Positions 7,156 through 34,757 are shown, numbered from the stretch's first letter. The stretch: DNA of 64,000 nucleotides from a bacterium (GCA_016719645.1 JADJYS010000014.1:69467-133466); one strand, 5' to 3'. The notes: generated by a model from the letters alone, not told the origin. Numbers and translations are program-made.

Positions 7156-7643
7156 GACGACTCCTTGATTTGAAGTGCGCGGTCCCTGGGGTTTTCGCGG
7201 AATACCCGGATACCTGGACGCCGCCCCGTGCGGTCGTCGACGATCTTGCCATCACAGGATCGAGGCATCTCCACTGGGAAGATCATAAACTATGTTCGGT
7301 GACCGAATCAAGTAGATTTTCAGGATATTAAAAAAGTGATGAATTGTTAAATTTTAGCAGGCATCATAAATAATGAGATGAATCGTGAAAGATTTTCCCG
7401 GGCTCCCAATCCACGAACTTGTTGGCCGGCATGTCGGTTTCTGGTACTTTGTTCGGGTCTCGTACAAAGCTTCCGCGATGTCTTCGGTCCCAGCCTGCAG
7501 AGGTCGGCCCGGGGGGTGAATCCGGCGATGATGGACCTGCTCGGCGCTTTGCCGACACCGGACCACAACGAAAGCTGGCGCCCGATGGACGCTCATCCCC
7601 TCGTCGGCCCCGTCGCGGTCGCGCTCCCCGCGGAGGTGTTATC

Positions 7644-8678: not shown

Positions 8679-8722
8679 CGGCCGTCGGCTGACGACCGGC
8701 GGCGAGACGCCGCGCCCGCGAG

Positions 8723-11038
8723 CTAGCCGGGGAGCGCGCCGAGCACCTTCTCCGGCGTGACCGGCAGCTCCCGCACCCGCGCCCCCACCGCCGCCGCCAC
8801 CGCGTTGGCGATCGCCGCCGGCGGCGTGTCGATGCCGATCTCCCCGACGCTCTTGGCCCCGTACGGCCCGCTCGGCTCGTGGCTCGCCACGAGCTCCGCC
8901 CTGATCGACGGGATGTCCTCGCGCCCCGGGATCTTGTAGCTCATCAGGTCGCGCGTCCGCAGGTGGCCCTGCGGCCCGTACACGACCTCCTCCCACAGCG
9001 CCATGCCGATGCCCTGCGCCAGCCCGCCCTCGACCTGCACCAGCGCCAGGTTCGGGTTGATGGCCTGGCCGCAGTCCACCACCGCCACGTAGTCCACGAG
9101 CGTGACCTCGCCGGTGGCCGCATCCACCTCGACCTCGGCGAAGGCGGCCATGTACGGCGGCGGCGACTTCTCGCAGAGGTGGCTGCCGGTGGTCATCAGC
9201 TGCTTCTGGTGCTCGTTGTAGAGCAGCTTCGCCGACAGGTCCCGCAGCGTGATCGCGCCGTCCGGCCCGCGCACCTCGCTCCCGTCGAACGCCGCCCGCG
9301 CCGGCTCGCACCCCAGCGACCGCGCCCCCTCGACCAGGATCTCGGCGCGCATCTTCAGCGCCGCCTCGCGCACCGCGTGTCCCGAGACGTAGGTCGTGCT
9401 CGAGGCGTAGGCGCCGGTGTCGAAGGGCGTGCGGTCGGTGTCCGAGGCGTAGACGATGATGTCGCCGGTCGGCACGCCGAGGGTCTCGGCCGCGATCTGC
9501 GCCAGGATCGTGTCGCTGCCGGTGCCGAGGTCCGTCGCCCCGATCAGCAGGTTGAACGAGCCGAAGTCGTTGAGCTTGAGCGTCGCGGCCGCCATGTCGA
9601 TGGTCGGGATGCCCGAGCCCTGCATCGCCAGGGCCATGCCCAGGCCGCGGAACACGCCGGGCGCCACCTCGCGCCGCGGGCCCTTGGCGTCCCAGCCGAT
9701 CAGCTCCCTGCCGCGGCGGATGCACTCGGGCAGCTTGCAGCTCTCGACGATCATCTCCACGCCCTCGGTGCCCTCGCCCATGATGGCGAAGATGGGCGAG
9801 GTCTCCCCCTCGGCGATCATGTTCTTCTCTCTCAGGACGATCGGGTCGAGCCCCAGCTCGCCCGCCAGCTCGTCCAGCGCCGACTCCAGGGCGAAGTTGC
9901 CCTGGATCGCCCCGTAGCCGCGGTAGGCGCCGCCCGGCACGCGGTTGGTGTAGACCGTGCGGCCGCCGAAGCGCACCGCCTCGACCTTGTTGTACAGGGG
10001 CAGCGTCTTGGCGCCGGCCACCATGAACACCGTCAGGGCGTGCTCGCCGTAGGCGCCGGTGTCGGACAGCACCTCCAGGTCGATGGCGCGCAGCGTGCCG
10101 TCGCGGTCGGCGCCCAGGGTCACGTCCAGGCGCATCGGGTGGCGCGTGTTGGTGGCCTCGAAGACCTCGCGCCGCGTGTAGACCATCTTGGCGGGCCGGC
10201 CCGTGCGCAGCGTCGCCAGCGCGCAGTACAGCTCGCCGTGGAGCATCTGCTTGCCGCCGAAGCCGCCGCCGATGCGCGGCTTCACGACGCGGATCTCCTT
10301 CACCTCGCGCTCCAGGGCGCGGGCCATGATGCGCCGCACGTGCCACGGCGTCTGCGTCGAGCTCATGACGTTCAGCCGCCCGTGCACGTCCAGCCAGGTG
10401 CAGGCGCAGTGGGGCTCCAGCGCCACGTGCTGCTGGGCCTGCGTGTAGTAGCGCCGGCGCAGCACGACCTCGGACCCCGCGACGACCGCGTCCACGTCCC
10501 CCACGTGCATGCTGTAGGCGCTGGCGACGTTGCGCCGCGGCTCGAAGCCGATCGGGAAGTTCTCGTGGATCTCCGGCTCGGGGTGCAGCACGACGGGGTT
10601 GTCCAGCGCGGCCTCGAAGTCCAGCACCGCCGGCAGCACCTCGTACTCCACGCGCACCGCGCGCGCCGCCTCGCGGGCCTGCTCCTCGGTCTCGGCCGCG
10701 ACGATGGCGGCCTCGTCGCCCACGTGGCGCACGTACTCGTCCAGGATGAAGCGGTCGCGGGGCGAGGGCTCGGGGTGCCCCTGGCCGGCGCGCGTCACCG
10801 CCACGCGCGGCACGTCCCTCCAGGTGAAGGCCGCCAGCACGCCGGGCATCGCCAGCGCCGCGGCCGTGTCGACCGACAGGATGCGGGCGTGGGCGTGCGG
10901 GCTGCGCACCGCCACCACGCACAGCGATTCGCGCGGCGCCAGGTCGTCGGTGTAGGCGGGCGTGCCGCGCACCAGGCCCAGGGCGTCGATCTTGGGCAGG
11001 GACCTGCCGACTTCCCGCAGTCCGTCGTCTCGCTTCAT
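8723..11038 (-). CDS. Xanthine dehydrogenase family molybdopterin-binding large subunit (CoxL-like aldehyde oxidoreductase/hydroxylase)
   Basis: Starts MKRDDGLREVGRSLPKIDALGLVRGTPAYTDD. 771 aa. VPGGAYRGYGAIQG rather than the CODH AYXCSFR motif. ATGA overlap with the upstream FeS subunit. Confidence 0.9.
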   Translation of the reverse strand: MKRDDGLREVGRSLPKIDALGLVRGTPAYTDDLAPRESLCVVAVRSPHAHARILSVDTAAALAMPGVLAAFTWRDVPRVAVTRAGQGHPEPSPRDRFILDEYVRHVGDEAAIVAAETEEQAREAARAVRVEYEVLPAVLDFEAALDNPVVLHPEPEIHENFPIGFEPRRNVASAYSMHVGDVDAVVAGSEVVLRRRYYTQAQQHVALEPHCACTWLDVHGRLNVMSSTQTPWHVRRIMARALEREVKEIRVVKPRIGGGFGGKQMLHGELYCALATLRTGRPAKMVYTRREVFEATNTRHPMRLDVTLGADRDGTLRAIDLEVLSDTGAYGEHALTVFMVAGAKTLPLYNKVEAVRFGGRTVYTNRVPGGAYRGYGAIQGNFALESALDELAGELGLDPIVLREKNMIAEGETSPIFAIMGEGTEGVEMIVESCKLPECIRRGRELIGWDAKGPRREVAPGVFRGLGMALAMQGSGIPTIDMAAATLKLNDFGSFNLLIGATDLGTGSDTILAQIAAETLGVPTGDIIVYASDTDRTPFDTGAYASSTTYVSGHAVREAALKMRAEILVEGARSLGCEPARAAFDGSEVRGPDGAITLRDLSAKLLYNEHQKQLMTTGSHLCEKSPPPYMAAFAEVEVDAATGEVTLVDYVAVVDCGQAINPNLALVQVEGGLAQGIGMALWEEVVYGPQGHLRTRDLMSYKIPGREDIPSIRAELVASHEPSGPYGAKSVGEIGIDTPPAAIANAVAAAVGARVRELPVTPEKVLGALPG

Positions 11039-12260: not shown

Positions 12261-12346
12261 GGACCCATCCCTTCCGGTCGCCCTGGACTTGAGCTCGCAG
12301 ATTTGAAGTGTAGCATCCGCACGGTGACCGACCAAGTGCGGCCTAC

Positions 12347-12492
12347 GTCCCGGGTCCACACACGCGTCCTGTCGGGGGGCGCTTGCCGGGCACATCCTGT
12401 GCCCGGCATCGCTTGGCTGTCGGGCTCCGGCGCCCTCCTGGCGCCGGAACCCGGCAGACACCCCCGACAGGACGCGTGTGTGGACCCGGGAC
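12347..12492. repeat. MITE/REP-like structured repeat, copy 1 (32-bp perfect terminal inverted repeats, two internal hairpins)
   Basis: 12347..12378 is the exact reverse complement of 12461..12492. Internal hairpins GCCGGGCACAtccTGTGCCCGGC and CCGGCGCCctccTGGCGCCGG. About 88% identical to the reverse complement of the element at 22213..22400. Confidence 0.6.
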
Positions 12493-12523
12493 GAGATGGA
12501 TGTGGGCAGAAAACAGCGTTGAT

Positions 12524-13741
12524 TCAGCTCACGAGCAGCAGCAGTCCCTTGAGGTACTCGCCTTCGCGGTGGCCCAGCATCCAGGGGTGGTCGGGGCCGC
12601 CGGAGAGGCGGCGCAGCACGCGGGCGCGGCGGCCGGCGGCGAGCACGGCTTCCTGGGCCACCTGCTGGAAGCGCAGCAGGTTCATCGCCTGGCTGCAGGA
12701 GAAGGTCAGCAGCAGGCCGCCGGGCGCCAGCTTGTCGATGCCCAGGCGGTTGATCTCGCGGTAGCCGCGCTCGGCCCCGTCGAGCTCGCGCTGCGAGCGG
12801 GCGAACTTCGGCGGGTCGAGGATGACCAGGTCGTAGCGGTCGCGGCCCGGGCGCAGGAAGCGGAACACGTCCTCGCGCTGCACCAGGCCGGCCGCCTCGG
12901 GGAAGCCGTTGCGCCGCAGGTTGCGCTCCGCCGCCGCGCAGGCCGATTTCGAGGCGTCCACCGACACCACGTTCTCGGCGCCGCCCGCGGCCGCCGACAT
13001 CGAGAAGCCGCCGGTGTAGGCGAAGCAGTTCAGGACGCGGCGGTCGCGCGCCAGGGTGCCGACGAGCGCGCGGTTCTCGCGCTGGTCGAGGTAGAGGCCG
13101 GTCTTGTGGCCCGCTTCGGGCGAGGTCTCGTAGACCAGCCCGTTCTCGCGCACCAGCACCGGGTCGGTCAGCGCGCCCGCCAGCAGGCCGCGGACCGCCT
13201 CGAGCCCCTCGTCGGTCCGGGTGCGGGAATCGCTGCGCTCGAAGACGAAGGTCGGGGCGAGGTGCTCGGTCAAGGCGGCGAGCACTTCTTCGCGCCAGCG
13301 CTCGGCGCCCGCGGTCAGGAACTGCAGGACCAGGCCCGTCCCGTAGCGGTCGATGACCAGGCCCGGCAGGCCGTCGCCCTCGGAGTTCACCAGGCGGTAG
13401 CAGTCGGTCCGCTCCTCGCCCCCGGCGCCCAGCCGCCCGCCGTCGCCCAGGCCCAGGGCGGCGCGCGCGGCGACGGCCTCGCCCAGGCGGTCGCGCAGCA
13501 GGCGGCGCGTCACCGGACCCTCGAGGCTGACGATCCGCCCGGCCAGCAGCGACCGCGTGTTGACGTAGCCCCAGCCCAGCGCAGCGCCGTCCTGGGTCGT
13601 GAACGCGCACGGGTCGCCCGGCGCCTGGTAGCCCATCACGCGGGCGATCGAACCCTTGAAGATCCAGGGATGCCTGCCGGGCTCCGCGTCCTCGCGGCCG
13701 GGCTTGACGACGACGGTGCAGGTGGTGCGTGGGGCGGTCAT
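12524..13741 (-). CDS. rlmI: Class I SAM-dependent rRNA methyltransferase (RlmI/RlmK-like, PUA + MTase)
   Basis: MTAPRTTCTVVVKPGREDAEPGRHPWIFKGSI...NCFAYTGGFS...YDLVILDPPKFA. ATGA overlap with the upstream lipoprotein gene. Confidence 0.75.
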   Translation of the reverse strand: MTAPRTTCTVVVKPGREDAEPGRHPWIFKGSIARVMGYQAPGDPCAFTTQDGAALGWGYVNTRSLLAGRIVSLEGPVTRRLLRDRLGEAVAARAALGLGDGGRLGAGGEERTDCYRLVNSEGDGLPGLVIDRYGTGLVLQFLTAGAERWREEVLAALTEHLAPTFVFERSDSRTRTDEGLEAVRGLLAGALTDPVLVRENGLVYETSPEAGHKTGLYLDQRENRALVGTLARDRRVLNCFAYTGGFSMSAAAGGAENVVSVDASKSACAAAERNLRRNGFPEAAGLVQREDVFRFLRPGRDRYDLVILDPPKFARSQRELDGAERGYREINRLGIDKLAPGGLLLTFSCSQAMNLLRFQQVAQEAVLAAGRRARVLRRLSGGPDHPWMLGHREGEYLKGLLLLVS

Positions 13742-14199
13742 GGCGCCCCGGCGTCCGGCCGCTCGGCATCGCACGGCTGGCGGCGCAGGCGGCGCCACAC
13801 CTCGTCGATCACGTAGCGGCGCCCCTTGGCCACGAAGTCCGCGGCGTGGTGCCAGAGGTCCCCCTCGAGCCGGCAGCTGAAAGCGACCTTCTCGCCCATC
13901 AGCGCCTCGTTCGAGTGGATGCGGATGCACTCGGTGTAGACGCCGTCGCGGTAGCTCCAGGTTCCCGCGCCGCCGTCGAACTTGCCGGCGGCCCGCCCGG
14001 TGGTGGCGAACGCGTCGTCGGTCACGAGCTTGACGATGTCGCCCGGCCCCGGCGACTCGCCGGCCGGATAACGGTGTTCTCCGTCCCGGACCAGGATCCA
14101 GGAGCCGCGCAGGTCGGGGGACGTCCCGGCGCACCCGGACAGCAGGGAGAGGATCAGCAGGGTCGCGGCGCCGCACGCCGACAAACGTCGTTTCGACAT
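13738..14199 (-). CDS. Lipoprotein of unknown function
   Basis: MSKRRLSACGAATLLILSLLSGC lipobox. GGAGG 7 nt upstream. Translationally coupled to rlmI. Confidence 0.7.
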   Translation of the reverse strand: MSKRRLSACGAATLLILSLLSGCAGTSPDLRGSWILVRDGEHRYPAGESPGPGDIVKLVTDDAFATTGRAAGKFDGGAGTWSYRDGVYTECIRIHSNEALMGEKVAFSCRLEGDLWHHAADFVAKGRRYVIDEVWRRLRRQPCDAERPDAGAP

Positions 14200-14301
14200 G
14201 GTTCGACCTCCAGGCAACGGGGCGCCCGCATGGGAACAGGTCCCCGGATCGGGGTCAAGCGTATCCTCAGGGATCCCGGTCCGAACGGGCTCCTGCCGCG
14301 A

Positions 14302-14317
14302 TGTTGAATATTCAACA
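14302..14317. promoter_or_regulatory. 16-bp perfect palindrome TGTTGAATATTCAACA in the AT-rich divergent promoter region
   Basis: Read directly. Lies between divergently transcribed 13738..14199(-) and 14517..15347(+). Confidence 0.3.
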
Positions 14318-14443
14318 GGAATTTATCTTGACGTTTGGTTTGTTCGTGATATCGTGGTCCCGGTTCTCGGCTGGGGGGCCGGGAATGAGCTTACCATTTG
14401 TGAATTCGCATGCTTTCGACGTCGATTTTTAGCGATGTCGCTA

Positions 14444-14476
14444 TAGACTACCCGCGAAGTCTCCATTATAATGGAG
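14444..14476 (+). promoter_or_regulatory. Candidate sigma70-type promoter (TAGACT-17 bp-TATAAT); the -10 box is embedded in the 16-bp palindrome CTCCATTATAATGGAG
   Basis: -35 at 14444..14449, -10 at 14467..14472, palindrome at 14461..14476, about 40 bp upstream of the 14517 CDS. Confidence 0.35.
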
Positions 14477-14516
14477 CACTCTCACGGATGATCAAGCAGC
14501 GATCAGCCTGACAATC

Positions 14517-15347
14517 ATGGTGCGAGTGCACCACGTGGAAGCGAACATCAGAGGGGTCCGGTCGAAGATCATGGTCAATTTCAGTGACAACGCGCAAGCC
14601 ACGCTTCCGCACCCGGCGGCTCTCCCGAGCATCGGCCATGAAACAGCACGACTGTTTCAGGACCTGGAGCGGACCGCGCCCCGCGGCGAGCCGCGCCATT
14701 CGCCGCTGTACCTCGGCCTGCGCCGCGCCAGCGACATCGCCGTGTCCGTCATCGCGCTGTCCCTGTTCGCGGCCCTGCTGCCGCTGATCGCCTTGGCGAT
14801 CGTCGTGGACTCGCGCGGCCCGGTCTTCTACTCCCAGACCCGCATCGGCCGCAACCAGCGCCGCCGCAACGCCGGCCACGCCAGCTGCGAGCGCCGCAAG
14901 GTGATCTACCCGGGCCGCCCCTTCCGCATCTGGAAGCTGCGCTCCATGCGGACCGACGCCGAGCGCAACGGCCCCCAGCTGGCCCAGGCCGGCGACGCCC
15001 GCATCACGCGGGTCGGCCGTTTCCTGCGCCAGACGCGCCTGGACGAGGTGCCCCAGTTCTGGAACGTCCTGAGGGGCGAGATGACCCTGATCGGGCCCCG
15101 CCCCGAGCGGCTGTGCTTCGTCCGCCAGTACGAGGCCACGGTGCCCGGCTACCTCGCGCGGCTGGACGCCCTGCCCGGCATCACCGGCCTGGCCCAGGTG
15201 AACAACGGCTACGACGAGGACCTGCGCTCGGTCCAGCGCAAGCTGCGCCTGGACACCTTCTACATCACCCGGGCGAGCTGGACGCTGGATCTGCGCATCC
15301 TGCTGTCCACGGTCCGCGTGGTCCTGACGGGCGAGGGCGCGCGCTGA
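14517..15347 (+). CDS. Polyprenyl-phosphate sugar phosphotransferase (bacterial sugar transferase, PglC/WbaP C-terminal-domain family)
   Basis: One TM segment followed by ...PGRPFRIWKLRSMRTDAE...DEVPQFWNVLRGEMTLIGPRPE..LPGITGLAQV. An alternative start at 14571 is possible. Confidence 0.8.
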   Translation: MVRVHHVEANIRGVRSKIMVNFSDNAQATLPHPAALPSIGHETARLFQDLERTAPRGEPRHSPLYLGLRRASDIAVSVIALSLFAALLPLIALAIVVDSRGPVFYSQTRIGRNQRRRNAGHASCERRKVIYPGRPFRIWKLRSMRTDAERNGPQLAQAGDARITRVGRFLRQTRLDEVPQFWNVLRGEMTLIGPRPERLCFVRQYEATVPGYLARLDALPGITGLAQVNNGYDEDLRSVQRKLRLDTFYITRASWTLDLRILLSTVRVVLTGEGAR

Positions 15348-15512
15348 CGCGCCCCCGCCTCGAACCTCGACACCCCTCCTCTTCTTTTTGCACGGATCCC
15401 TCTTTTTGATGTATCATTGTAGGATGTCGGCTCGGGAACCCAGCCGCCCCGTGTCCGGACGACCACCCGTGGGATCGAATCCCATGCATCCCCACACACC
15501 CGATCCGCGAGG

Positions 15513-18053
15513 ATGACAACGATGTCCAAAGTCGGAACCGAGGTCTTGTCCGCCCGCCACGCCGCCGCGCGTTGGGCCGTCCCGGCGCTGCTGCTGACGG
15601 CCGCCCTGCTGGCGATCCTGAGCCTGAACGCCGCGGCCGCCGACCGCGCCGCCAGCCCCGCCGCGTCCGCCGGCCTGCGCCCGTTGGCGGAGGTCGCGGT
15701 CTTCGCCGCCGACGTCGTCGACCGCGACCAGGCCCTCGCCGAGGACGACGTCCGCGCCCGCGACGGCGAGCCGCCCCGCTTCGCGATCCCCCAGCCGGCC
15801 TTCATCGCGCCGGACACCCACGGCTCGTGGGAGGTCCTGAACGAGAGCACCCGGCTGTGGCGCCTGCGCATCTCCAGCCCCGGCGCGCTGTCGCTGAACC
15901 TCGGGTTCACGCGCTTCGTCATGCCCGAGACCGGCCGCCTGCTGATCTACCCGGCCGACCTGTCGCAGCCGGCGATCGCCTTCACCGCCGCGGACAACCG
16001 CGACCACGGCCAGCTCTGGACGCCGATCATCCCCGGCGACGAGATGGTCGTCGAGGTGCAGATCGCGGCCAAGGCCGCGGCCGACCTGGAGCTGGAGCTG
16101 ACCTCGGTGAACGTGGGCTACAAGACCTTCGGCGAGACCCTGGTCGACAAGTCCGGCGCCTGCAACATCGACGTCGTCTGCCCCGAGGGCGACGGCTGGC
16201 GGGACGACATCCAGTCGGTGGCCGTGATCTCCACCGGCGGCAGCACCTTCTGCTCCGGCTTCATGGTCAACAACACCGCCCAGGACGAGCGCTCCTTCTT
16301 CATGACGGCCTACCACTGCGGCATCCACACCTCGCAGGCGCCGACGCTGGTCACCTACTGGAACTTCAACAGCCCGACCTGCGGCCAGCACGGCGGCGGC
16401 TCGCTCTCGCAGTTCCTGACCGGCAGCACCTTCCGCGCCGAGTCCAGCGCGTCGGACTTCACGCTGGTCGAGCTGAACTCCGTGCCCGACGCTTCCTGGA
16501 ACGTCGCCTACGCGGGCTGGGACCGCGGCGCCCAGAATCCGACCTCGGCCACCGCGATCCACCATCCCAACACCGACGAGAAGAGCATCAGCTTCGAGAA
16601 CGATCCCCTGACCACGACCACCTACCTGCAGGAGGCCGTGCCCGGCAACGGCACACACCTGCGCGTCGCGGACTGGGACGCGGGCACCACCGAGGGCGGC
16701 TCCTCCGGCTCGCCGCTGTTCAACCAGAACCACCACGTCGTGGGCCAGCTGCACGGCGGCTACGCGGCCTGCGGCAACAACCTCTCGGACTGGTACGGGC
16801 GCTTCTCCCGGTCCTGGACCGGCGGCGGCACTTCGGCCACGCGCCTGAGCAACTGGCTCGACCCGCTGAACACCGGCGCGCAGACGCTCGACCTGCTGGC
16901 GCCCTACGCCAGCGGCCTGCGCGTCGCCCCGGCCTCCGGCCTGTCCACGCAGGGCGACGTCGGCGGCCCGTTCGCGCCCGCGAGCAAGGACTACACGCTG
17001 ACCAACGCCGGCGACGCCGCCGTCGGCTACCTGGTCGCGGCCGACGTGGCCTGGGTCACCGTCGCCAACGGCAGCGGCACGATCCCCGCGGGCGGCGACG
17101 TCGTCGTCACCGTCACGGTCAACGCCGCGGCGAACACGCTGCCGACCGGCGTCCACACCGGCACGCTGTCGTTCACCAACACCACCGACCACGACGGCGA
17201 CCTCACGGCGCCCCTGTCGCTGCAGGCCGGCCTGCCCGAGCTGGTCTACGGGTTCGACATGAGCACCAACCCGGGCTGGACCGTCGAGGGCCAGTGGGCC
17301 TGGGGCGTGCCGACCGGCGCCGGCGGGGCCTACGGCGAGGCCGATCCCACGGGCGGCTGGAACGGCGGCGCGGTCTACGGCTACAACCTGGCCGGCGACT
17401 ACGCCAACAGCCTGCCCGAGCGCCACCTCACCACGACCGCCCTGGACTGCAGCGGCCTGTCGGCGGTCACCCTGAAGTTCCGGCGCTGGCTCAACGTCGA
17501 GCAGCCCGCCTACGACCACGCCTACGTGCGCGTCAGCAACGACGGCGTGAACTGGGTCACGGTCTGGCAGAACACCGCCGAGATCGCCGACGCCGCCTGG
17601 TCCCTCGCCGAGTTCGACATCTCGGCGGTGGCCGACGGGCAGAGCACGGTCTACGTGCGCTGGACCATGGGCAGCACCGATTCCAGCTGGCAGTACTCCG
17701 GCTGGAACCTCGACGAGGTCGAGATCTGGGGCCTCCAGCGCTCGCAGGGCACCGGCGCCGGCGACCTGCCGCAGGCCGGCGCCCGGCTGCGCCCGCTGTC
17801 CCCCAACCCGTTCAACCCGCGCACCGAGGTCCGCTTCGACCTGCCGACGGCCGGCCCGGCCCGCCTCGCGGTCTACGACGTGCGCGGCCACCTGGTGAAG
17901 GTCCTGAGCGACGGCGAGCTGCCCGCGGGCGAGCACGCCGCCGTCTGGGACGGCACCGACGCGCGCGGCCGCGCCATGAGCAGCGGCAGCTACGTCTTCC
18001 GGCTGACGGCCGGCGACGTCGTCCACACCCGCAAGGGGGTGCTGGTCCGCTGA
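15513..18053 (+). CDS. Secreted trypsin-fold serine endopeptidase (lysyl-endopeptidase-like S1 family) with C-terminal T9SS-like domain
   Basis: Signal peptide. Motifs CNIDVVCPEG, TAYHCG and GGSSGSPLF (catalytic Ser). C-terminus NPFNPRTEVRFDLPTAGPARLAVYDVRGHLVKVL...WDGTDARG. Confidence 0.85.
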   Translation: MTTMSKVGTEVLSARHAAARWAVPALLLTAALLAILSLNAAAADRAASPAASAGLRPLAEVAVFAADVVDRDQALAEDDVRARDGEPPRFAIPQPAFIAPDTHGSWEVLNESTRLWRLRISSPGALSLNLGFTRFVMPETGRLLIYPADLSQPAIAFTAADNRDHGQLWTPIIPGDEMVVEVQIAAKAAADLELELTSVNVGYKTFGETLVDKSGACNIDVVCPEGDGWRDDIQSVAVISTGGSTFCSGFMVNNTAQDERSFFMTAYHCGIHTSQAPTLVTYWNFNSPTCGQHGGGSLSQFLTGSTFRAESSASDFTLVELNSVPDASWNVAYAGWDRGAQNPTSATAIHHPNTDEKSISFENDPLTTTTYLQEAVPGNGTHLRVADWDAGTTEGGSSGSPLFNQNHHVVGQLHGGYAACGNNLSDWYGRFSRSWTGGGTSATRLSNWLDPLNTGAQTLDLLAPYASGLRVAPASGLSTQGDVGGPFAPASKDYTLTNAGDAAVGYLVAADVAWVTVANGSGTIPAGGDVVVTVTVNAAANTLPTGVHTGTLSFTNTTDHDGDLTAPLSLQAGLPELVYGFDMSTNPGWTVEGQWAWGVPTGAGGAYGEADPTGGWNGGAVYGYNLAGDYANSLPERHLTTTALDCSGLSAVTLKFRRWLNVEQPAYDHAYVRVSNDGVNWVTVWQNTAEIADAAWSLAEFDISAVADGQSTVYVRWTMGSTDSSWQYSGWNLDEVEIWGLQRSQGTGAGDLPQAGARLRPLSPNPFNPRTEVRFDLPTAGPARLAVYDVRGHLVKVLSDGELPAGEHAAVWDGTDARGRAMSSGSYVFRLTAGDVVHTRKGVLVR

Positions 18054-18081
18054 CGGACCCGCCGGATCCCGGCGTTGCAGG

Positions 18082-18109
18082 GGAGGCGGGACCCTCGGGT
18101 CCCGCCTCC
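18082..18109 (+). terminator. Hairpin GGAGGCGGGACC-ctcg-GGTCCCGCCTCC followed by TTCCGTTCC
   Basis: Perfect 12-bp stem about 30 bp after the protease stop. Confidence 0.5.
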
Positions 18110-18130
18110 TTCCGTTCCGGGAGATGCCGG

Positions 18131-18159
18131 TTGGCCGCCCCCGGCGCCCGTGGTATACT
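18131..18159 (+). promoter_or_regulatory. Candidate promoter TTGGCC-17 bp-TATACT with extended -10 (TGgTATACT)
   Basis: Read directly. About 75 bp upstream of ATG 18233. Confidence 0.4.
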
Positions 18160-18232
18160 GGGCTCGAGCCCTCGGGAGACCGAAGGATCATCTCGCCGGA
18201 CATCCCGAGGGTACCAGCCTGGGAGGGATGCG

Positions 18233-18712
18233 ATGGCCGTCAAGATCTACAGCGCGCCGTACTACACCACCACGGTGCCGGACATCCCCGGCGAAGCCTG
18301 CCGCCTGCTGTCACGCCTCGCCAGGGACGATGTGAACCTGCTCGCCTTCACGGCCCTGCCGATCGGCACGGGCGAGACCCAGCTCGTCATCTACCCGCTG
18401 AACACGACCTGGCTCGCCGACGTCGCGCGGCGCACCGGCCTGGTGCTCAACGGCCCCCACCACGCGTTCCTGGTGCAGGGGGACGACGAGCTCGGCGCCC
18501 TGGTGAAGATCCACCACCGCCTGTGCGACGCCGACATCAACGTCGCGACCTCGACGGGCCTGGCCGACGGCAAGGGGGGCTACCGCTACCTGCTGCACGT
18601 GCACCCGCAGGACTTCGCCCGGGCGTCGGACGTCCTGGGGGCCACGCACATCCCGTCGCGGTGGGACAATTTCGAGCTGAAGATCCCGCGCCATTTCGAG
18701 GCGTCGATGTAG
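18233..18712 (+). CDS. Hypothetical protein (two ACT-like repeats)
   Basis: GGGAGGG SD. 159 aa of normal composition, with an internal duplication of an ~40-aa unit. Confidence 0.55.
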   Translation: MAVKIYSAPYYTTTVPDIPGEACRLLSRLARDDVNLLAFTALPIGTGETQLVIYPLNTTWLADVARRTGLVLNGPHHAFLVQGDDELGALVKIHHRLCDADINVATSTGLADGKGGYRYLLHVHPQDFARASDVLGATHIPSRWDNFELKIPRHFEASM

Positions 18713-18737
18713 GCGGGTGTCGGCGGGGAGAGGGCGC

Positions 18738-19736
18738 TCAGGCGGCGCGGGCGGCGTGCGCCCGCATGAGGTAGGTCCGCAGTTCCGAATCGGCGAGCCG
18801 GCGGTCCAGCCGGTGCTCGTGACCCATCACGACTTTCAGGATCGGCACCGACGCCCGCTTCAGCAGCGCGCGCAGCGATTCGCGCGCCGCGGGGGTCTGC
18901 TGCACCCAGCGCGACCGCACCAGCAGCAGCGCCATGTGCTCGAGCCAGGCCTGGGCCGGGCTGGCGGTCTCGCGGCCGGCCGGTCCGTGGACGCGGCCGC
19001 GGTCCAGGAACTCGTCGATGAGGCCGTGCGCCTCGTCCACCAGCGCCTCGTGCGAGAGGTGGTCGAGGTGGGTCGATCCCTCGCCGCGCCAGACGGCGGC
19101 CAGGAACTCGGCGGCGGTGCGGCCGGGCGCCGCGGTCCAACCGCGCCCGACGGCGCCGGTGTGGGTGTCCGACGAAGCGGTCAGCGGCAGGCCGCGCTCG
19201 GCGGCCAGGCCGGCGGTGATCAGGTTCTGGGCCGGCGTGCGCGCGGCGTTCAGCTCGAGCACCGGGAAGCGCGCGGCGATCTCCGGCACGCGCGCGAAAT
19301 CGACCTGCCCGCGCCTCAGTTCGGCGCGCTCCCACCACGTCGGATGGTTGTACTGGTAGAGGATGCCGTGCTCGTCGCAGAACAGGCACAGCTCGTCCAG
19401 CGTGCGCACCGCGGCGCGCAGCCGCGCGTAGGTGTCCGGGTCCAGGCCGTAGAGGTTGGTGTGGATCGTGAAGCCGAGGCCCGGGTCCAGCAGGGTGTGC
19501 TCGACGGCGGGGATCACCAGGGCGCGGTCGGCCTCGGGCAGCTCGCGCACCAGCGCCTCCCAGCCGGCCATCGTGTCGTGGTCGGTGAGCGCGAACCAGT
19601 CCAGGCGCCGCTCGGCGTCGGGGTGTCCCAGCGCCGCCTCGAACAGGGCGCGCGGGTGCAGCGCCGCGAGGTCGGGCACGTCGAAGGAGAAGGACGAATG
19701 GACGTGAAGGTCCGCTTTGCCGAAGGTGTCGCGCAT
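18738..19736 (-). CDS. PHP-domain metal-dependent phosphoesterase
   Basis: DLHVHSSFSFD...LTDHD PHP motifs. Downstream of, and co-directional with, the TagD/TagF-like gene. Confidence 0.8.
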   Translation of the reverse strand: MRDTFGKADLHVHSSFSFDVPDLAALHPRALFEAALGHPDAERRLDWFALTDHDTMAGWEALVRELPEADRALVIPAVEHTLLDPGLGFTIHTNLYGLDPDTYARLRAAVRTLDELCLFCDEHGILYQYNHPTWWERAELRRGQVDFARVPEIAARFPVLELNAARTPAQNLITAGLAAERGLPLTASSDTHTGAVGRGWTAAPGRTAAEFLAAVWRGEGSTHLDHLSHEALVDEAHGLIDEFLDRGRVHGPAGRETASPAQAWLEHMALLLVRSRWVQQTPAARESLRALLKRASVPILKVVMGHEHRLDRRLADSELRTYLMRAHAARAA

Positions 19737-19826
19737 GGGGCCTCAAGGTAGGCGGGTTCGGGGGCGGCGCCAGGGATTTTCCCCGTGATCGACGAACTGG
19801 CTCGATCGCAACGCGTTGATTCCTCT

Positions 19827-21350
19827 CTACGCCGGATCCGGCGCCGGGTTCCCCTCCCCGGAGGGCTGATCCTGCAACTCCCTGATCCTGATCGCGATGC
19901 GCCGGGTGGCGAGGCCGTCGACGGCGCCCAGCCGGGCTTCCGCCAGCGCCCGCTGCCGCGGCCGGCGCTCCCCGAGCAGGGCCAGGACCGTGTCGGCCAG
20001 TTCCCGCGGACCGGGCGCGGGCACCACCGCGAGCGTCTCGGCGAGCGATGGCCGCAGCTCCGGCGGCCAGGCCGCGTCCGCGACGCCGCGCACCAGCACC
20101 GCGGGCGTGTCGAAGAGCAGGGCCTCCCAGAACACGCCCGACAGGTCGCCGATGACCGCGCTCGCCTGCGCCACGTGGACGAAGGACCGGCCGTCGGCCG
20201 GCAACACCCGGGCGCCGGCCGCCCGCGCCCAGCGCAGCACGTCCCGCGACGGGGACAGCGGGTGGGGCGCGAGCACGAGGTCCGCGTCGCGCGACAGCCG
20301 CCGCAGGGCCTCGCGCCAGCGGCGCGACATCAGCAGCCCGCGCGGCTCGGCGCGGGGGCCCCAGGTCGGCAGCAGCAGGATCCGCGGCCGGCCGGCCGGC
20401 GGCGGGTTGGTGAACGAGCCGCCGTCGCGCAGGAACCCGTCGCAGTGCAGGTAGGCGTCGGGCGCGAACGACCAGTCGTGGACGGTCAGGTTGCCGGCCG
20501 CGAGCGGCGCGCGGCGGCGGGCCGCGTCGGCGCTCGTGCCCGGCTTGCCGCTGCGCCCGTGCGAGAGCGCGACCAGCGCGATCGGCCGCGGCGAATCGCG
20601 CAGCACCGGCGCCATGGCGTCGAAATTGAAGTGGGCGGTGACGATCACGTCCAAGCCGTAGTGCGCGATCGAAGCCGCGGCGGCGGCCGCTTCCTGGTCC
20701 TCGCGCAGCAGGGCGCAGGGCGCGTCCGGGAAGTGCCGGCGCACCAGCTCGCGCCCGCCCTCGCCCACGAACCAGACGCCGCCGATCTGCGCGTAGAGGT
20801 CCCGCAGGTGGTCGAAGATGTGGGTCCGGCTCCAGTCCGGGCGGCTGCTGTACAGCCACCAGCCCACGTCGGGCACCGCGGCCCGCAGCCGCGTGCTGTC
20901 GATCCCGGGAGTGTGCGGCAGCAGCACGAGCTGCAGGCCGAGCCGCGCGATGAGTTCCTCGCCCCAGCGCCGCCGGTAGGCGGCGGGATCCCAGTCGTCG
21001 CCGTGGAAGACGAGCTTCACCCCGTGATCGCGGCACAGCCGGGCCCGGTCGCTGCTGACGACCACCGCGTGCGCGATCCCCAGGGCGCGGATCGCGGCCG
21101 CGCGCTCGAGCTCGGAATTGGCGGGCTGGACGCCCTTGTAGCGGCGCACTTCCTCGTCGGTGTGCACGCCGACCACCAGGCGGTCGCACATCCCGGCCGC
21201 GCGCCGCAGCAGGTTGAGATGCCCCTCGTGGCAGAAGTCGAACACGCCGAGCGTGAGGCCCACCACGGGCCGGCTCCGCACCCGCCGGGCGAAGCCGAAC
21301 CACCCGCGGCGGCTCTCCGGCGGGACTGCGATGTGACCGTGGTTCGTCAT
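19827..21350 (-). CDS. Fusion protein: N-terminal cytidylyltransferase (TagD-like, HxGH) + C-terminal CDP-glycerol glycerophosphotransferase (TagB/TagF-like)
   Basis: GVFDFCHEGHLNLL and ...GIDSTRL in the N-domain. C-domain ~300 aa with the TagF-like LLLPTWGPR...LAPHP pattern. Confidence 0.75.
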   Translation of the reverse strand: MTNHGHIAVPPESRRGWFGFARRVRSRPVVGLTLGVFDFCHEGHLNLLRRAAGMCDRLVVGVHTDEEVRRYKGVQPANSELERAAAIRALGIAHAVVVSSDRARLCRDHGVKLVFHGDDWDPAAYRRRWGEELIARLGLQLVLLPHTPGIDSTRLRAAVPDVGWWLYSSRPDWSRTHIFDHLRDLYAQIGGVWFVGEGGRELVRRHFPDAPCALLREDQEAAAAAASIAHYGLDVIVTAHFNFDAMAPVLRDSPRPIALVALSHGRSGKPGTSADAARRRAPLAAGNLTVHDWSFAPDAYLHCDGFLRDGGSFTNPPPAGRPRILLLPTWGPRAEPRGLLMSRRWREALRRLSRDADLVLAPHPLSPSRDVLRWARAAGARVLPADGRSFVHVAQASAVIGDLSGVFWEALLFDTPAVLVRGVADAAWPPELRPSLAETLAVVPAPGPRELADTVLALLGERRPRQRALAEARLGAVDGLATRRIAIRIRELQDQPSGEGNPAPDPA

Positions 21351-21457
21351 GTCCTCTTGGTTATCGGCCGCCGCGGGCCGCGATCAAGTCCCCTCTTGCG
21401 CCTGCCGGGACCCGGCGGCATCCTCTTGCCGGACCACCGGTTCCAGGAGTCGACGAC

Positions 21458-22177
21458 ATGTGCGGACGCTTCACGCTGACCCTGACGCCCGAGGAGACCG
21501 CCCGGCTGCTGGCCCTGGACGCCGCGCTGGACGCCGCGCTCGGCCTGCGCCCCCGCTGGAACATCGCCCCCGGCCAGGACCTCCCGGCCGCCGTCCAGGA
21601 ATCCCCGGACGCGCCGCGCACCCTGCGCAACCTGAACTGGGGCCTGGTGCCGCGCTGGTCGCGCGGCCCCGCCGACGGCATCCGCCCGATCAACGCCCGC
21701 GCCGAGACGGCGGCCGACAAGCCGGCGTTCCGGGATGCCTTCCAGCGCCGCCGCTGCCTGATCCCCGCCGACGGCTTCTACGAGTGGCAGCGCATGGGCG
21801 GCCGGAAGCAGCCCTGGCTCTTCCGCCTCAAGGACGAACCCGGCTTCGCGATGGCCGGCCTCTGGGAAACCTGGACGCCGCCGGCAGGCTCCCCCCTGCA
21901 CACCTGCGCCCTGCTGACCACCGACGCCAACGACCTCATGCGCCCCATCCACGACCGCATGCCCGTCATCCTGCACCGCGCCGATTTCGAAGCCTGGCTC
22001 ACCGCCGCACCCGAAGCCGCCCCCGCCCTGCACGACCTCCTGCGCCCCTACCCCGCCGACCAGATGACCGCCTGGCCCGTCTCCCCCCTCGTCAACGCCC
22101 CAAGCAACGACGGCCCCCAACTCGCCGAACCCTGCGAGCCGACAGATCCCGGCGAGCAGTACCGCCTGCTCGACTGA
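21458..22177 (+). CDS. SOS response-associated peptidase (SRAP/YedK, abasic-site processing protein)
   Basis: N-terminal MCGRF (catalytic Cys2). WNIAPGQ, FYEWQ and LWETW motifs. Confidence 0.9.
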   Translation: MCGRFTLTLTPEETARLLALDAALDAALGLRPRWNIAPGQDLPAAVQESPDAPRTLRNLNWGLVPRWSRGPADGIRPINARAETAADKPAFRDAFQRRRCLIPADGFYEWQRMGGRKQPWLFRLKDEPGFAMAGLWETWTPPAGSPLHTCALLTTDANDLMRPIHDRMPVILHRADFEAWLTAAPEAAPALHDLLRPYPADQMTAWPVSPLVNAPSNDGPQLAEPCEPTDPGEQYRLLD

Positions 22178-22212
22178 CCACTGCCCGCTCCTGATCGGGC
22201 AATCCTTCCCGT

Positions 22213-22400
22213 CCCTTCTGCATGGATCACCTCGCTCTGTTCATCCACACCCGTTCCGTCGGGGGTGTCGAGAGGGTTCCGGCGCCAGGAGGGCGCCGGA
22301 GCCCGAACGCCAAGCGCGCCGGGCACAGGACGTGCCCGGCGCGCGCCCCCCGACGGGACGGGTATGGACGAACAGAGCGCAGGAAATCCATGCAGAAGGA
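22213..22400. repeat. MITE/REP-like structured repeat, copy 2 (opposite orientation, ~50-bp imperfect terminal inverted repeats)
   Basis: Contains CCGGCGCCaggaGGGCGCCGG and GCCGGGCACaggacGTGCCCGGC hairpins. Its reverse complement aligns at ~88% to the core of 12347..12492. Lies between the convergent stops of SRAP and pyk. Confidence 0.6.
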
Positions 22401-22418
22401 CCCGGGACGATCTCCCGA

Positions 22419-23843
22419 TCAGGAGCGAGCAGGCACCGTGACGATCTTGATGAGGTTGGTGCGCCCCGCCTCGTGCAGCGGCAGCCCGGCGGTAACAACG
22501 ACGGAGTCGCCCGGCGCGACGTGCCCGGCATCGAGGGCCAGGCGCAGGGCGTCGCGCTCCATCTCCTCGAGCGTGTCGCCCTCGGGGGAGAAGAAGGGCA
22601 GCGCGCCCCAGACCAGGGCCAGGCGGCGGCAGATGGCGGCGTTGTCGGTCATCGCCAGCAGCGGCTGCGGCGGGCGCGACTTGGCGACCAGGCGGGTGGT
22701 GCTGCCGCTGGTGGTCATGGTGATGATGGCGGCGGCGCCGATCTCGGCGGCCATGCGGCAGGCGGCGCGGGCCACGGCCTCGTCGCTGTTCAGGCCCGCG
22801 TGCGGGGGGAAGCGCGAGTTCCAGCCGGCGTAGGGGAAGGACTCCTCCGCGCTCGCGGCGATGCGCGCCATGGTGCGCACGGCCTCCACCGGGTAGAGGC
22901 CGACGGCGGTCTCCTCCGAGAGCATCACCGCGTCGCTGCCGTCGAGGATGGCGTTGGCCACGTCCGAGACCTCGGCGCGCGTGGGGCGCGGGCTCTCGAC
23001 CATCGAGCGCAGCATCTGCGTGGCCGTGATGACGGGCACGCCCGCGTCGTTGGCCTTGTAGATCAGGGATTTCTGCACGCCGGGCACGCGCTCCAGCGGG
23101 ATCTCGACGCCCAGGTCGCCGCGGGCCACCATCAGCCCGTCGACCACCTGCAGGATCTCGTCGATGTTCGCGATGGCTTCGCGCTGCTCGATCTTGGCGA
23201 CGATGGGCCGCCGGGTCCCGATGTCGTCCATCGCGGCGCGGCAGGCCAGGACGTCCGACGCGTTGCGCACGAACGACAGGGCCACGTAGTCGACGTTCTC
23301 GGCCAGCCCGAAGCGCAGGTCCTCCAGGTCCTTGTCGTCGAGGATCGGGGCGCTGATCGTGCCGCTCGGCAGGTTGATCCCCTTGTTCGCGCTCAGCTCG
23401 CCGCCGGCCTCGACGCGGCAGACGACGTCCGGCCCGTCGACCTTCTCCACCTTCAGGCAGAGGGCGCCGTCGGCCAGCAGCAGCGTGTCGCCGACGACGA
23501 CGTCGCCGGGCAGGCCCTTGTAGCCGACCGACACCTCGCGATCGTCGCCGGGCACGTCGCGCGCGGTCAGGGTGAACAGGTCGCCCCGGCGCAGCGTCAC
23601 CGGTCCGTCCGCGAAGCCGCCGATGCGGATCTTCGGGCCGGCGAGGTCCTGCAGGATGGCCACCGGGCGCCCGGCCTCGTCGGCCGCGGCCCGCACGTCG
23701 CGGATGGCCCGGCGCTTCACGTCCAGCGTGCCGTGGCTGAAGTTCAGGCGCACGACGTCCAGGCCGGCGCGGACCAGCTCGAGCAGGACGGCCGGATCGC
23801 GGGTGGCCGGGCCCAGCGTGGCGACGATCTTGGTGCGGCGCAT
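22419..23843 (-). CDS. pyk: Pyruvate kinase
   Basis: MRRTKIVATLGPAT...NFSHG...MVARGDLGVEIP...; 474 aa. Confidence 0.95.
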   Translation of the reverse strand: MRRTKIVATLGPATRDPAVLLELVRAGLDVVRLNFSHGTLDVKRRAIRDVRAAADEAGRPVAILQDLAGPKIRIGGFADGPVTLRRGDLFTLTARDVPGDDREVSVGYKGLPGDVVVGDTLLLADGALCLKVEKVDGPDVVCRVEAGGELSANKGINLPSGTISAPILDDKDLEDLRFGLAENVDYVALSFVRNASDVLACRAAMDDIGTRRPIVAKIEQREAIANIDEILQVVDGLMVARGDLGVEIPLERVPGVQKSLIYKANDAGVPVITATQMLRSMVESPRPTRAEVSDVANAILDGSDAVMLSEETAVGLYPVEAVRTMARIAASAEESFPYAGWNSRFPPHAGLNSDEAVARAACRMAAEIGAAAIITMTTSGSTTRLVAKSRPPQPLLAMTDNAAICRRLALVWGALPFFSPEGDTLEEMERDALRLALDAGHVAPGDSVVVTAGLPLHEAGRTNLIKIVTVPARS

Positions 23844-28340: not shown

Positions 28341-28450
28341 CCATCCGCCCGGGACTCCAAAAAACGGCGCGCCGCCTCTGGGGCCCGGCCCTCGGCGGCG
28401 CGCTCGGCTATCTCTGGCACTACTGGCAGCACTGCAGCGGCGCGACCTGA
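28337..28450 (+). CDS. Small ORF (37 aa) coupled by ATGA overlap to the S9 peptidase gene; in-frame continuation after TGA
   Basis: MTIRPGLQKTARRLWGPALGGALGYLWHYWQHCSGAT*. An open frame continues for 28 more codons after the TGA. Confidence 0.2.
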   Translation: MTIRPGLQKTARRLWGPALGGALGYLWHYWQHCSGAT

Positions 28451-28543
28451 CGGATCAGCGCCAACCCGGTCGTCGCGGTCCTCTGGGGCGCGGCGATCGG
28501 GTGGCTGCTGACCTCCGGGCGAGGCCGCCGCGACTGACGACCG

Positions 28544-34706: not shown

Positions 34707-34757
34707 GGCGCGGCGATCGGCCGCCGGCCGCCCCCCGGGCGGGGCCGCCGCGGCTGA

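Follow-up and report, generated by a model that had tools for sequence, protein, structure and literature searches.

A REP/MITE-like family of non-coding palindromic repeats in an uncultured, high-GC bacterial lineage

Two strongly structured inverted repeats lie at gene 3' ends in the stretch of bacterial DNA analysed here (64,000 nucleotides at full length, hereafter the window), raising the question of what these elements are, how they are maintained and what they might do. The preliminary description, made from the window sequence, read them as a REP- or MITE-like repeat, either a transcribed structure such as a terminator or a mobile element that targets hairpins. We delimited the two copies as follows.

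Copy 1 (rlmI/XDH locus)
12346..12493, + strand: whole element, 148 bp, covariance-model score 113 bits
12346..12378, + strand: left arm (P1), 33 nt, 100% complementary to 12461-12493
12379..12460, + strand: conserved apical module, with the junction GGGG-G-CGC, hairpin 1, the linker CGCTTGGC, hairpin 2 and AGACACCCCC
12385..12407, + strand: hairpin 1, GCCGGGCAC-ATCCT-GTGCCCGGC, 9-bp stem with family-wide covariation (helix 2)
12422..12452, + strand: hairpin 2 in full, 13-position stem with a conserved C.A mismatch, loop CTCCT, family-wide covariation (helix 4)
12427-12447, + strand: hairpin 2 motif, CCGGCGCC-CTCCT-GGCGCCGG
12461..12493, + strand: right arm (P1), 33 nt, pairing perfectly with 12346-12378

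Copy 2 (SRAP/pyk locus)
22181..22432, - strand: whole palindrome, 252 bp, covariance-model score 108 bits, filling the gap between the SRAP and pyk stops
22181..22232, - strand: outer arm on the SRAP side, 81% complementary to 22381-22432
22233..22265, - strand: inner arm on the SRAP side, 33 nt, 91% complementary to 22347-22379
22266..22346, - strand: conserved apical module, both hairpins on the - strand
22279-22299, - strand: hairpin 2, an exact match to hairpin 2 of copy 1
22318-22340, - strand: hairpin 1, as in copy 1 except for A to G in the loop
22347..22379, - strand: inner arm on the pyk side, 91% complementary to 22233-22265
22381..22432, - strand: outer arm on the pyk side, holding the last four pyk codons (P-A-R-S) and the TGA stop

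Both copies are real and far beyond chance. Each hairpin motif occurred in the two copies only, against 0.0-0.1 matches expected from shuffled sequence, and the folding z-scores of the two copies were -13 and -16. No other strong local palindrome occurs in the 64 kb, where the remaining local inverted repeats reached at most 83% complementarity. The arms of copy 1 are perfect, as first described, although they measure 33 bp and span 12346-12493 rather than 32 bp at 12347-12492; copy 2, previously bounded at 22213..22400, is larger (22181-22432), with outer arms that are 81% complementary. The reported opposite orientation of copy 2, its identical hairpins with one A-to-G loop change and its core identity of about 88% were all recovered (measured at 87-88%); the top strand, with the loops ATCCT and CTCCT in copy 1, is the window + strand for copy 1 and the - strand for copy 2. 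The gene context was likewise as reported. The minus strand encodes both the rlmI-like gene (12524-14176) and the XDH-family genes, which places copy 1 30 nt beyond the 3' end of rlmI and upstream of the XDH operon; copy 2 lies between the convergent stops of SRAP (22175-22177) and pyk (22419-22421). The small open reading frames sharing the peptide SGSGALLAPEP, a sharing that the preliminary description put down to the repeat alone, were rejected as a conserved small ORF: no coding signal was found across the copies, variable columns being spread over the codon phases as 27/27/22, with stops in most frames.

A covariance model of the core returned 40 full-length matches (72-113 bits) at no fewer than 17 sites in approximately 15 related assemblies, the window contributing only two. 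The pattern search of metagenomes for the element gave 32 loci. The first pattern applied to the genome collection was loose, and 7 of its 54 matches were true copies, the others being chance GC-rich hairpins. The two copies are members of a previously undescribed low-copy family of non-coding, hairpin-forming repeats, 125-300 bp in length, in an uncultured high-GC bacterial lineage. NCBI names for the MAGs of this lineage are inconsistent (Gemmatimonas, Latescibacterota or just 'bacterium'). A segmental duplication, or a similarity arising by chance, within the window alone would account for finding just two copies in 64 kb, but it is refuted by the roughly 40 copies at 17 or more sites in other assemblies, by the absence of the motifs from shuffled sequence, and by orthologues of each window copy in four to eight other genomes (L041, L014, L040 and L084 for copy 1; L053, L010, L055, L056, L080, L087, L090 and L094 for copy 2); we regard its probability as negligible. 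The outcome that the preliminary description would have taken as refutation, with further copies and covariation both lacking, is decisively contradicted by these copies and by the covariation described below, and the multi-copy structured repeat that it proposed is upheld.

Family members share one plan, in which a long stem (P1) is capped by a conserved, asymmetric module of approximately 80 nt. The inner 33-35 bp of P1 are usually perfect, while their sequence differs from site to site. The module consists of GGGG-R-CGC, hairpin 1 (loop NTC[C/G]T, often CUCGU/ACGAG), a short helix of CGCTYG paired with GACRCCCC, and hairpin 2 (loop YTCCT in 33 of 37 copies, of which 29 have CTCCT). Arm lengths beyond approximately 35 nt are approximate, because delimitation by minimum free energy over-extends in GC-rich DNA. 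Arms of different copies are recognisably homologous, and in a 236-bp subfamily the 23-nt outer termini and a segment of the inner arm are conserved at four sites. It follows that the unit is the entire palindrome, contrary to the earlier suggestion that a core had been inserted into pre-existing hairpins.

Pairing in the core is strongly supported by covariation. Both sides change in 28 of the 40 pairs and 96.3% of cells are paired; none of 500 shuffles reached the observed values, and sliding the 3' partner lowered pairing to 37-45%. At the junction pair (columns 48/95), T-A occurs in 24 sequences and C-G in 12, with zero exceptions. The pairing fits correction of inverted repeats at the DNA level: it is strand-symmetric and almost purely Watson-Crick, G.U pairs filling only 6 of 1440 cells, and the core is flipped between orthologues (L058 versus L075, and L094 versus L090). 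Stem covariation is thus not by itself evidence of RNA. The conservation of structure rather than sequence noticed in the outer stem was seen again, but it loses its force as an argument for an RNA.

A specific regulatory RNA read from one strand appears quite improbable. Its appeal lies in conserved loop motifs on covarying stems, with two anti-Shine-Dalgarno-like loops (CUCCU) on the top strand and, on the bottom strand, two CAGGA(N)G loops similar to CsrA/Rsm-type GGA sites or Shine-Dalgarno mimics. Wobble-type mismatches, found on both strands, lean to the bottom one (19 versus 6 independent site-by-pair events), and hairpin 2 keeps its C.A (top strand) across the family. However, orientation relative to the only plausible direction of transcription varies between sites and even between orthologues, the frequent CUCGU/ACGAG form of the hairpin 1 loop is without GGA, G.U pairs are far below the usual level for functional RNAs, and no promoter-like sites were detected at the two window copies. 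The only Rsm-family match in Rfam was RsmW, at 11.9 bits against a gathering score of 52. The CsrA-like and anti-Shine-Dalgarno readings of the loops are kept only as resemblances. At gathering thresholds, Rfam 15 identified only an nhaA-I riboswitch elsewhere in the window; permissive scans gave generic long-hairpin matches of at most 35 bits (thresholds 45-128), and nothing was found at four loci with paired copies.

The copies are shown to be vertically inherited at fixed sites. Across 13 close orthologous pairs, core stems were 97.5% identical (710/728), compared with approximately 92% for flanks and outer arms, and unpaired core positions (93%) were no more conserved than flanks. Core stems are the slowest-evolving part, and the arms change at the background rate, both sides together. 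In the window, the apical module of copy 1 is identical to its orthologues at 81/82 and 79/82 positions where flanks are 87-94% identical, and the core region of copy 2 (22258-22354) matches L053 and L010 at 96/97 positions, against an identity of 88-91% in the coding flanks. The orthologues L066 and L068 are an exception, with lower conservation in the core than in the flanks. Even where pyk identity has dropped to 67-70%, the pyk-SRAP copy is still present in relatives and folds; the sequences of its arms are then unrelated, but near-perfect arms of 32-35 bp are retained. Cores of close relatives cluster by site and not by genome, and concerted evolution among paralogous cores was therefore rejected as the cause of their conservation in close relatives, with the exception of the L056-group site-1 copy, whose hairpin 2 stem is common to sites 7 and 9.

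How the arms stay complementary is suggested by the changes themselves. Orthologous arms differ by paired and multi-nucleotide changes; those of copy 1 show paired substitutions of the types T-A<->C-G and C-G -> C.T -> A-T, and the inner arms of copy 2 have perfect counterparts in L055 and L053. Arms overlie the terminal codons of pyk, and in L094 those of both pyk and SRAP; the pyk of the L056 group ends ...VP*, without the P-A-R-S tail. Arm expansion is possible for L094 and copy 2. Homogenisation of inverted repeats at the DNA level is known to yield symmetric Watson-Crick arms and flipped spacers (PMC8604942, PMC5941160). As its signatures (arm homogenisation, spacer inversion and arm extension) are seen here, we infer that complementarity would be kept by DNA-level inverted-repeat correction, through template switching at replication or conversion within the palindrome. 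Perfect inverted repeats kept by template switching share with the family homogenised arms, multi-nucleotide changes, an inverted spacer and arm expansion (PMC5941160, PMC8604942, PMC13100816), but that is a general process acting on short repeats, and it leaves the conserved apical module and its dispersal unexplained. In principle, template switching alone, with no selection involved, might also keep hairpins 1 and 2 intact, which counts against our reading.

New copies would arise occasionally by a route that leaves no target-site duplication. The subfamily termini, found only around known copies (approximately 0.6 Mb of loci), and near-identical cores at different sites (98% identical at two of them) indicate apparent occasional mobility. 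One copy, at the XDH 3' end, is present in L041 and absent from the window and L040, where the alternative state is a 1.25-kb replacement and no clean empty site is seen. The L041 element supplies a stop codon, since the same terminal sequence occurs at three other sites; the idea that its outer arms are inverted copies of the end of the neighbouring gene was rejected. Target-site duplications, which the preliminary description proposed to look for, were found at none of the junctions of at least 20 copies, not even where the arms are perfect and the termini sharp.

These observations bear on whether the family is a purely selfish, non-autonomous mobile element (MITE- or PATE-like) without host function, its tip and stem being read on single-stranded DNA by a trans-acting enzyme (e.g., a Y1/HUH transposase or a structure-specific recombinase) and its gene-end location reflecting where insertions are tolerated or targeted. 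The discrete subfamily with termini conserved at four sites, the 98% identical cores, the presence/absence difference at the XDH 3' end, the hairpin 2 stem of the L056-group site-1 copy in common with sites 7 and 9, and fusions to gene 3' ends, as in bacterial MITEs (PMC3184786), all favour it, as does the occurrence of one motif in both loops of the same strand, the expectation for a dimeric reader of one DNA strand. We nevertheless hold it to be unlikely in view of the fixed orthologous copies that do not decay (core stems 97.5% versus approximately 92% in flanks), the persistence of a folding pyk-SRAP copy at 67-70% pyk identity, the lack of target-site duplications at the junctions, the low copy number, and the absence of matches in plasmid and phage records. 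Furthermore, no transposase-like or recombinase family recurred among 65 neighbouring proteins at 13 loci.

Comparison with known systems places the family close to REP and MITE elements, the best classification and the one first proposed. Bacterial MITEs as defined to date, including Correia/CREE of Neisseria, ERIC of Enterobacteriaceae, Nezha and Chunjie (PMC3184786), are likewise small, non-coding, whole-length stem-loops with inverted termini flanking a core; they too occur as multiple dispersed copies, mostly at gene 3' ends and predicted to be co-transcribed, some of which give a neighbouring gene its last codons and stop, and well conserved termini are matched by one subset of the family. 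Inverted repeats around a short non-coding core are present here, with arms of at least 33 nt in nearly all copies. It differs from MITEs in that no target-site duplications were found and no related transposase or parent IS was seen in the loci around copies; in most copies the asymmetric centre is conserved, and the arms hold their length but vary freely in sequence; and copies are low in number and kept at orthologous sites over large divergence with constrained stems.

REP elements are imperfect palindromes of 20-40 nt with a conserved GTAG-type head and hundreds of copies; they have been associated with the protection of mRNA 3' ends and with binding of gyrase or IHF. As in REP/BIME/REPIN systems (with RAYT, Y1 transposases, whose genes typically have REPs on their flanks), family members are extragenic palindromes located at the ends of genes and in convergent gaps, in either orientation and without target-site duplications. 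In REPINs, however, the arms are conserved and the loop is free, the reverse of the family, where the ~80-nt centre is conserved and the arms vary; no GTAG-type head was found in the stacked element ends, and no RAYT-like gene was seen in the 8-14-kb loci around copies. Integron attC sites are 60-150 nt long, and large ones may have a branched tip. These and the forked hairpin of CTX phage resemble the family in conserved structure, free stem sequence and Watson-Crick pairing, but in attC the base of the stem is conserved and the tip variable, again the reverse. Neither R''/R' boxes (GTTRRRY) at the ends, nor a cassette array, nor an integrase among the neighbours was found; family copies are solitary or in inverted pairs. 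PATEs derived from IS200/IS605 carry a subterminal hairpin at either end of one strand, lack terminal inverted repeats and have a TnpA(Y1) partner. The two hairpins with like loops on one strand are reminiscent of them, but the family is a full-length palindrome with long inverted arms, and TnpA was not seen near copies.

A further reading takes the palindrome as a DNA-level site, extruded as a cruciform or folded in single strands and bound by a protein, which could be a topoisomerase or a nucleoid protein acting at gene ends, as with BIME/REP, or a recombinase that inverts or captures the segment between copies. Strand-symmetric pairing fits it, as does a conserved tip whose orientation relative to genes is free. 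All four inverted pairs are in the -> <- arrangement; at the D locus, L007 carries the stretch between two inverted cores in the reverse orientation to L043, with the crossover inside the shared core; and in L065 a pair flanks a gene of lower GC content. An ORF between the L065 pair, considered as a transposase, proved to encode a 215-aa secreted protein. On the other hand, no recombinase gene lies among the 65 neighbouring proteins at 13 loci, the 10-kb segment between the inverted copies 1 and 2 is collinear in all relatives, and core flips are rare (one within site 1 over nine genomes and one at site 9). No sigma-70-type site was found in either orientation of the D-locus spacer, which makes an invertible promoter of that type unlikely there. 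Inversions between inverted repeats also occur without a dedicated enzyme (PMC8604942). Such a DNA site seems to us rather improbable. Bolder still, the tip may be the substrate of a putative structure-specific DNA enzyme acting on a folded strand or cruciform, in the manner of attC or the forked hairpin, with -> <- copies bracketing inverted or captured segments (the D-locus spacer in L043/L007 and the lower-GC gene in L065 being candidate examples) and solitary gene-end copies serving as resting sites. We consider this very doubtful; if true, it would be a new folded-DNA recombination system in an uncultured phylum.

The position of the elements argues for a role at gene ends. Sites usually lie 0-40 nt past a stop codon, in tandem and convergent gene pairs, and at all eight tandem-gene sites it is the upstream stop that the element adjoins (-13 to 30 nt away), rather than the start of the gene downstream, in line with the 3'-end location first noted. 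One site, in L066/L068, lies between divergent genes and weighs against this role. In L095, which lacks the element, a canonical bidirectional terminator occupies the same pyk-SRAP position; the element is also absent from the relatives L092 and L096 and is thus dispensable. Intrinsic bidirectional terminators are similarly GC-rich hairpins right after stops, often between convergent genes, but the family has no T-/A-tract, a stem three to six times longer, and a branched, conserved tip common to unrelated loci. At the two window copies no T-tract or A-tract was found (flanks CGAGATG and CGAGGTG), so they are not canonical intrinsic terminators, and the terminator reading falls in that form. 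Hairpin-plus-T-tract sites in the window numbered 3, 5 and 4 against 5.1, 4.3 and 6.0 expected, and this lack of enrichment suggests that the organism may not rely on such terminators.

The least certain step of our model is that the element would act as an orientation-independent gene-end hairpin in a genome largely without hairpin-plus-T-tract terminators. Transcribed from either side, it would fold into a highly stable stem-loop by which the upstream transcript is terminated, or its 3' end protected or insulated, with the conserved tip as a putative binding platform for a factor. A tip conserved while its orientation to the abutting gene is free is awkward for a reader of a single RNA strand, and for a simple hairpin at a gene end there would be no need to conserve an asymmetric tip. 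A vertically kept palindromic family with DNA-level arm correction, occasional spread and gene-end hairpin function is the best explanation overall, and we give this whole account an even chance of being right. Judged from sequence, the family is a new REP/MITE-like one that probably serves as gene-end hairpins. It resembles known elements of this type, and its conserved two-hairpin tip is unusual.

With these results, a bacterial lineage seen only in metagenomes gains a well-defined repeat family backed by structural evidence; to our knowledge, no small repeats or terminators have been described for it so far. They also provide a natural example of a known pitfall that bears on covariation-based RNA discovery, namely that DNA-level palindrome correction can produce covariation in long stems: as paired Watson-Crick-only changes, spacer flips and arm growth over stops may all come from such correction, covariation is not proof of selection at the RNA level. 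Finally, the tip is kept at the same gene end over deep divergence, with a classical bidirectional terminator in its place in one relative, which leads to the testable hypothesis that high-GC bacteria without T-tract terminators may mark gene ends with such elements.

The preliminary description of a two-copy structured repeat was borne out in the window, with folding z-scores of -13 for copy 1 and -16 for copy 2. Both copies consist of a long stem (P1) capped by a module with two hairpins, and they are located as follows.

Copy 1, 12346-12493, top strand (the strand carrying the loops ATCCT and CTCCT) on the window plus strand: 33-nt arms, 100% complementary, enclosing 82 nt that hold two small hairpins.
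Copy 2, 22181-22432, on the opposite strand to copy 1: inner arms 22233-22265 and 22347-22379, 91% complementary.

For copy 2, the two shared hairpins and the opposite orientation stood as described, and its extent had to be enlarged, as additional imperfect arms beyond the inner arms carry the palindrome to 22181-22432. Hairpin 2 is the same in the two copies, and a single base in the loop sets their hairpin 1 sequences apart. All other local inverted repeats of the 64-kb window stay at or below 83% complementarity, and no coding signal was found in the element copies. Given that the rlmI-like gene and the genes of the XDH family both read from the minus strand, copy 1 is upstream of the XDH operon and 30 nt beyond the stop codon of rlmI. 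Copy 2 occupies the gap between the convergent SRAP and pyk genes, and its outer arm holds the final four pyk codons and the stop.

To count copies and model their structure, as the preliminary description had proposed, we built a covariance model from the element core and searched the window and related loci. Seven of the 54 loci picked up by a loose scan of the genome collection proved to be true copies, all in four MAGs that share synteny and 88-97% identity with the window. Orthologues of copies 1 and 2 were present at the same positions in the four MAGs, with additional copies at other loci. A pattern search of metagenomes gave a further list of 32 loci. The lineage occurs in metagenomes from activated sludge and soil. 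In total, the covariance model recovered 40 full-length copies (72-113 bits), which fell into at least 17 distinct sites according to their flanks and showed strong pair covariation; within the window it found only copies 1 and 2. No Rfam family matched the element, and nothing resembling it was found in plasmid and phage records. The element is a genuine family of structured palindromic repeats that has not been described before.

Four parts were present in every copy. P1 has an inner portion of 33-35 bp that is mostly perfect and varies in sequence from site to site; the two sides of the junction read GGGG-R-CGC and GAC-R-CCCC; hairpin 1 has a stem of 9-13 bp and an NTC[C/G]T loop; and hairpin 2 has a stem of approximately 13 bp and a YTCCT loop, and lies inside a short helix. 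Many copies have extra imperfect outer arms. Such a conserved asymmetric tip on arms of free sequence is unusual. In the model alignment, which was fitted to the covariance model and is thereby biased toward the structure, both-sided changes were seen in 28 of 40 pairs and 96.3% of cells were paired. None of 500 shuffles matched the observed pairing values, pairing fell to 37-45% when the 3' partner was slid, and MAFFT/RNAalifold, run independently, arrived at the same fold. Furthermore, the junction pair covaries between T-A and C-G without exception in 36 sequences.

We then compared orthologous copies of close relatives (nine sites, 13 pairs). Core stems were 97.5% identical (710/728), compared with 95% for inner P1, 93% for the unpaired core, approximately 92% for outer P1, and approximately 92% for the mostly coding flanks. 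The copy at the pyk-SRAP site (site 1) was retained in relatives whose pyk identity is only 67-70%; there the arms are near-perfect over 32-35 bp although their sequence is unrelated, and the loops persist. Concerted evolution as the source of core conservation is disfavoured, because the cores of close relatives group by site. The exception is the L056 group of related loci: its site-1 copy has a hairpin 2 stem in common with sites 7 and 9, and a core that matches the window site-1 core at only about 70% (57/81 core positions), which suggests ectopic conversion or re-insertion. Judging from these sequence comparisons, the slow core stems and conserved loops argue for selection acting on the folded tip. 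In the long-read Ejby MAG, the orthologue of copy 1 (L040 5613-5745) shows a number of small deletions, located in hairpin 1 and in the right arm, reflecting either real decay or homopolymer/hairpin assembly errors.

The arms change in a different manner. Their substitutions come in pairs, for example T-A to C-G, or C-G to A-T, for which one genome shows a mismatched intermediate, and copy 2 shows a block change from ACCCGTCCCG/CGGAACGGGT to ATCCGCTGCG/CGCAGCGGAT; more paired changes were found at L055 and L056. G.U pairs are nearly lacking (6 of 1440 cells), and wobble-type mismatches occur on both strands, leaning to the bottom strand (19 vs 6 independent events). Between L058 and L075, and likewise between L094 and L090, the asymmetric core has opposite orientations with respect to the same flanking genes. 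A larger inversion was found at a two-copy site, the D locus.

D locus, two copies facing each other between pntB and an sdh/frd-like operon: L043 4304-4766, L007 1-356, L072 320-784.

L007 carries the ~300-bp segment between the two cores in inverted orientation compared with L043 and L072, with the crossover within shared core sequence, and the resulting copies have mismatched arms. Arms also extend across terminal codons of neighbouring genes; at L094, two convergent genes both end within the two arms (...PEG* and ...IEG*). Published work shows that polymerase template switching, where it acts on imperfect inverted repeats, leaves just such marks: homogenised arms, an inverted spacer and expanded arms (PMC8604942, PMC5941160, PMC13100816). 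We therefore infer that long-arm complementarity arises mainly at the DNA level through template switching, and not from selection on an RNA helix.

Evidence on mobility came from a discrete 236-bp subfamily, whose 23-nt termini are conserved at four sites, from cores 98% identical at two different sites, and from a presence/absence difference at the XDH 3' end. The loci concerned, together with a bracketed gene, are listed here.

Window 7473-8728: ~1.25-kb segment with a plus-strand gene, shared by the window and L040; a 236-bp element copy replaces it in the related locus L041 (5541-5775).
L065 1058-2181: gene of lower GC (59-62%) encoding a secreted protein of 215 aa, bracketed by two inverted element copies.

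The L041 copy, absent from the window and L040, is fused to the gene for the XDH large subunit at its 3' end and provides that gene's last codons and stop. Taken together, the termini, the near-identical cores and this difference point to occasional spread. A mobility enzyme between the L065 pair was ruled out, the bracketed gene encoding the secreted protein; this gene adjoins one whose C-terminus, judged by eye only, resembles glutamate dehydrogenase. No recurrent transposase or recombinase family was found among 65 neighbouring proteins. No target-site duplications were found around element copies, and the element thus falls outside MITEs in the strict sense. The earlier interpretation, a transcribed structured element or a non-autonomous mobile element, is supported in part.

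The window has several other features.

48644-48700, minus strand: nhaA-I riboswitch (RF03057), scoring 54.2 bits (gathering score 37), the only Rfam family at threshold in the window.
28480-28542 and 34700-34762: 63-nt intergenic direct repeat, 81% identical, the former copy between convergent ORFs 27488-28450 (plus) and 28544-29044 (minus); it may be another gene-end repeat family.
55970-56720: dense GCC/GGC-rich repeats of 9-nt period, probably encoding, on the minus strand, a protein with Gly/Ala-rich repeats.
35071-36177: at least six repeats of ~159-bp period, probably a repeat-domain (propeller-type) protein.
17802-17971 and 54362-54531: 170-nt inverted similarity (75%), a C-terminal domain common to two proteins on opposite strands, opening with codons for ...PNPFNPRTEVRFDLP; FlgD_ig-type domains are frequent in neighbouring genes of the lineage.
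1-20 kb: sigma-70-type promoter matches enriched (5 found vs 0.5 expected).

Most element copies lie 0-40 nt past a stop codon. At all eight tandem-gene sites the element adjoins the stop of the upstream gene rather than the start of the downstream one; the genes converge at three or four sites and diverge at one. Relative to the abutting gene, the top strand is the sense strand at nine sites and the bottom strand at three, and at site 9 one and the same gene occurs with either core orientation. The related locus L095 has the same pyk-SRAP arrangement without the element, and a textbook bidirectional terminator (AAAACGGTCCCC-cgg-GGGGACCGTTTT) is found there; in some other relatives the element is missing altogether. 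A role at transcript 3' ends has been reported for REP and some MITEs (PMC3184786), and the role proposed here is comparable. Based on its position and conservation, the element would be a gene-end hairpin acting in either orientation to form, protect or insulate the 3' end of the transcript, working at gene ends like REP/ERIC/Correia-type elements. No T-tract was found at copy 1 or copy 2, and hairpin-plus-T-tract terminators were at or below chance throughout positions 1-60000 of the window, without enrichment, so the window organism may mark its gene ends by other means.
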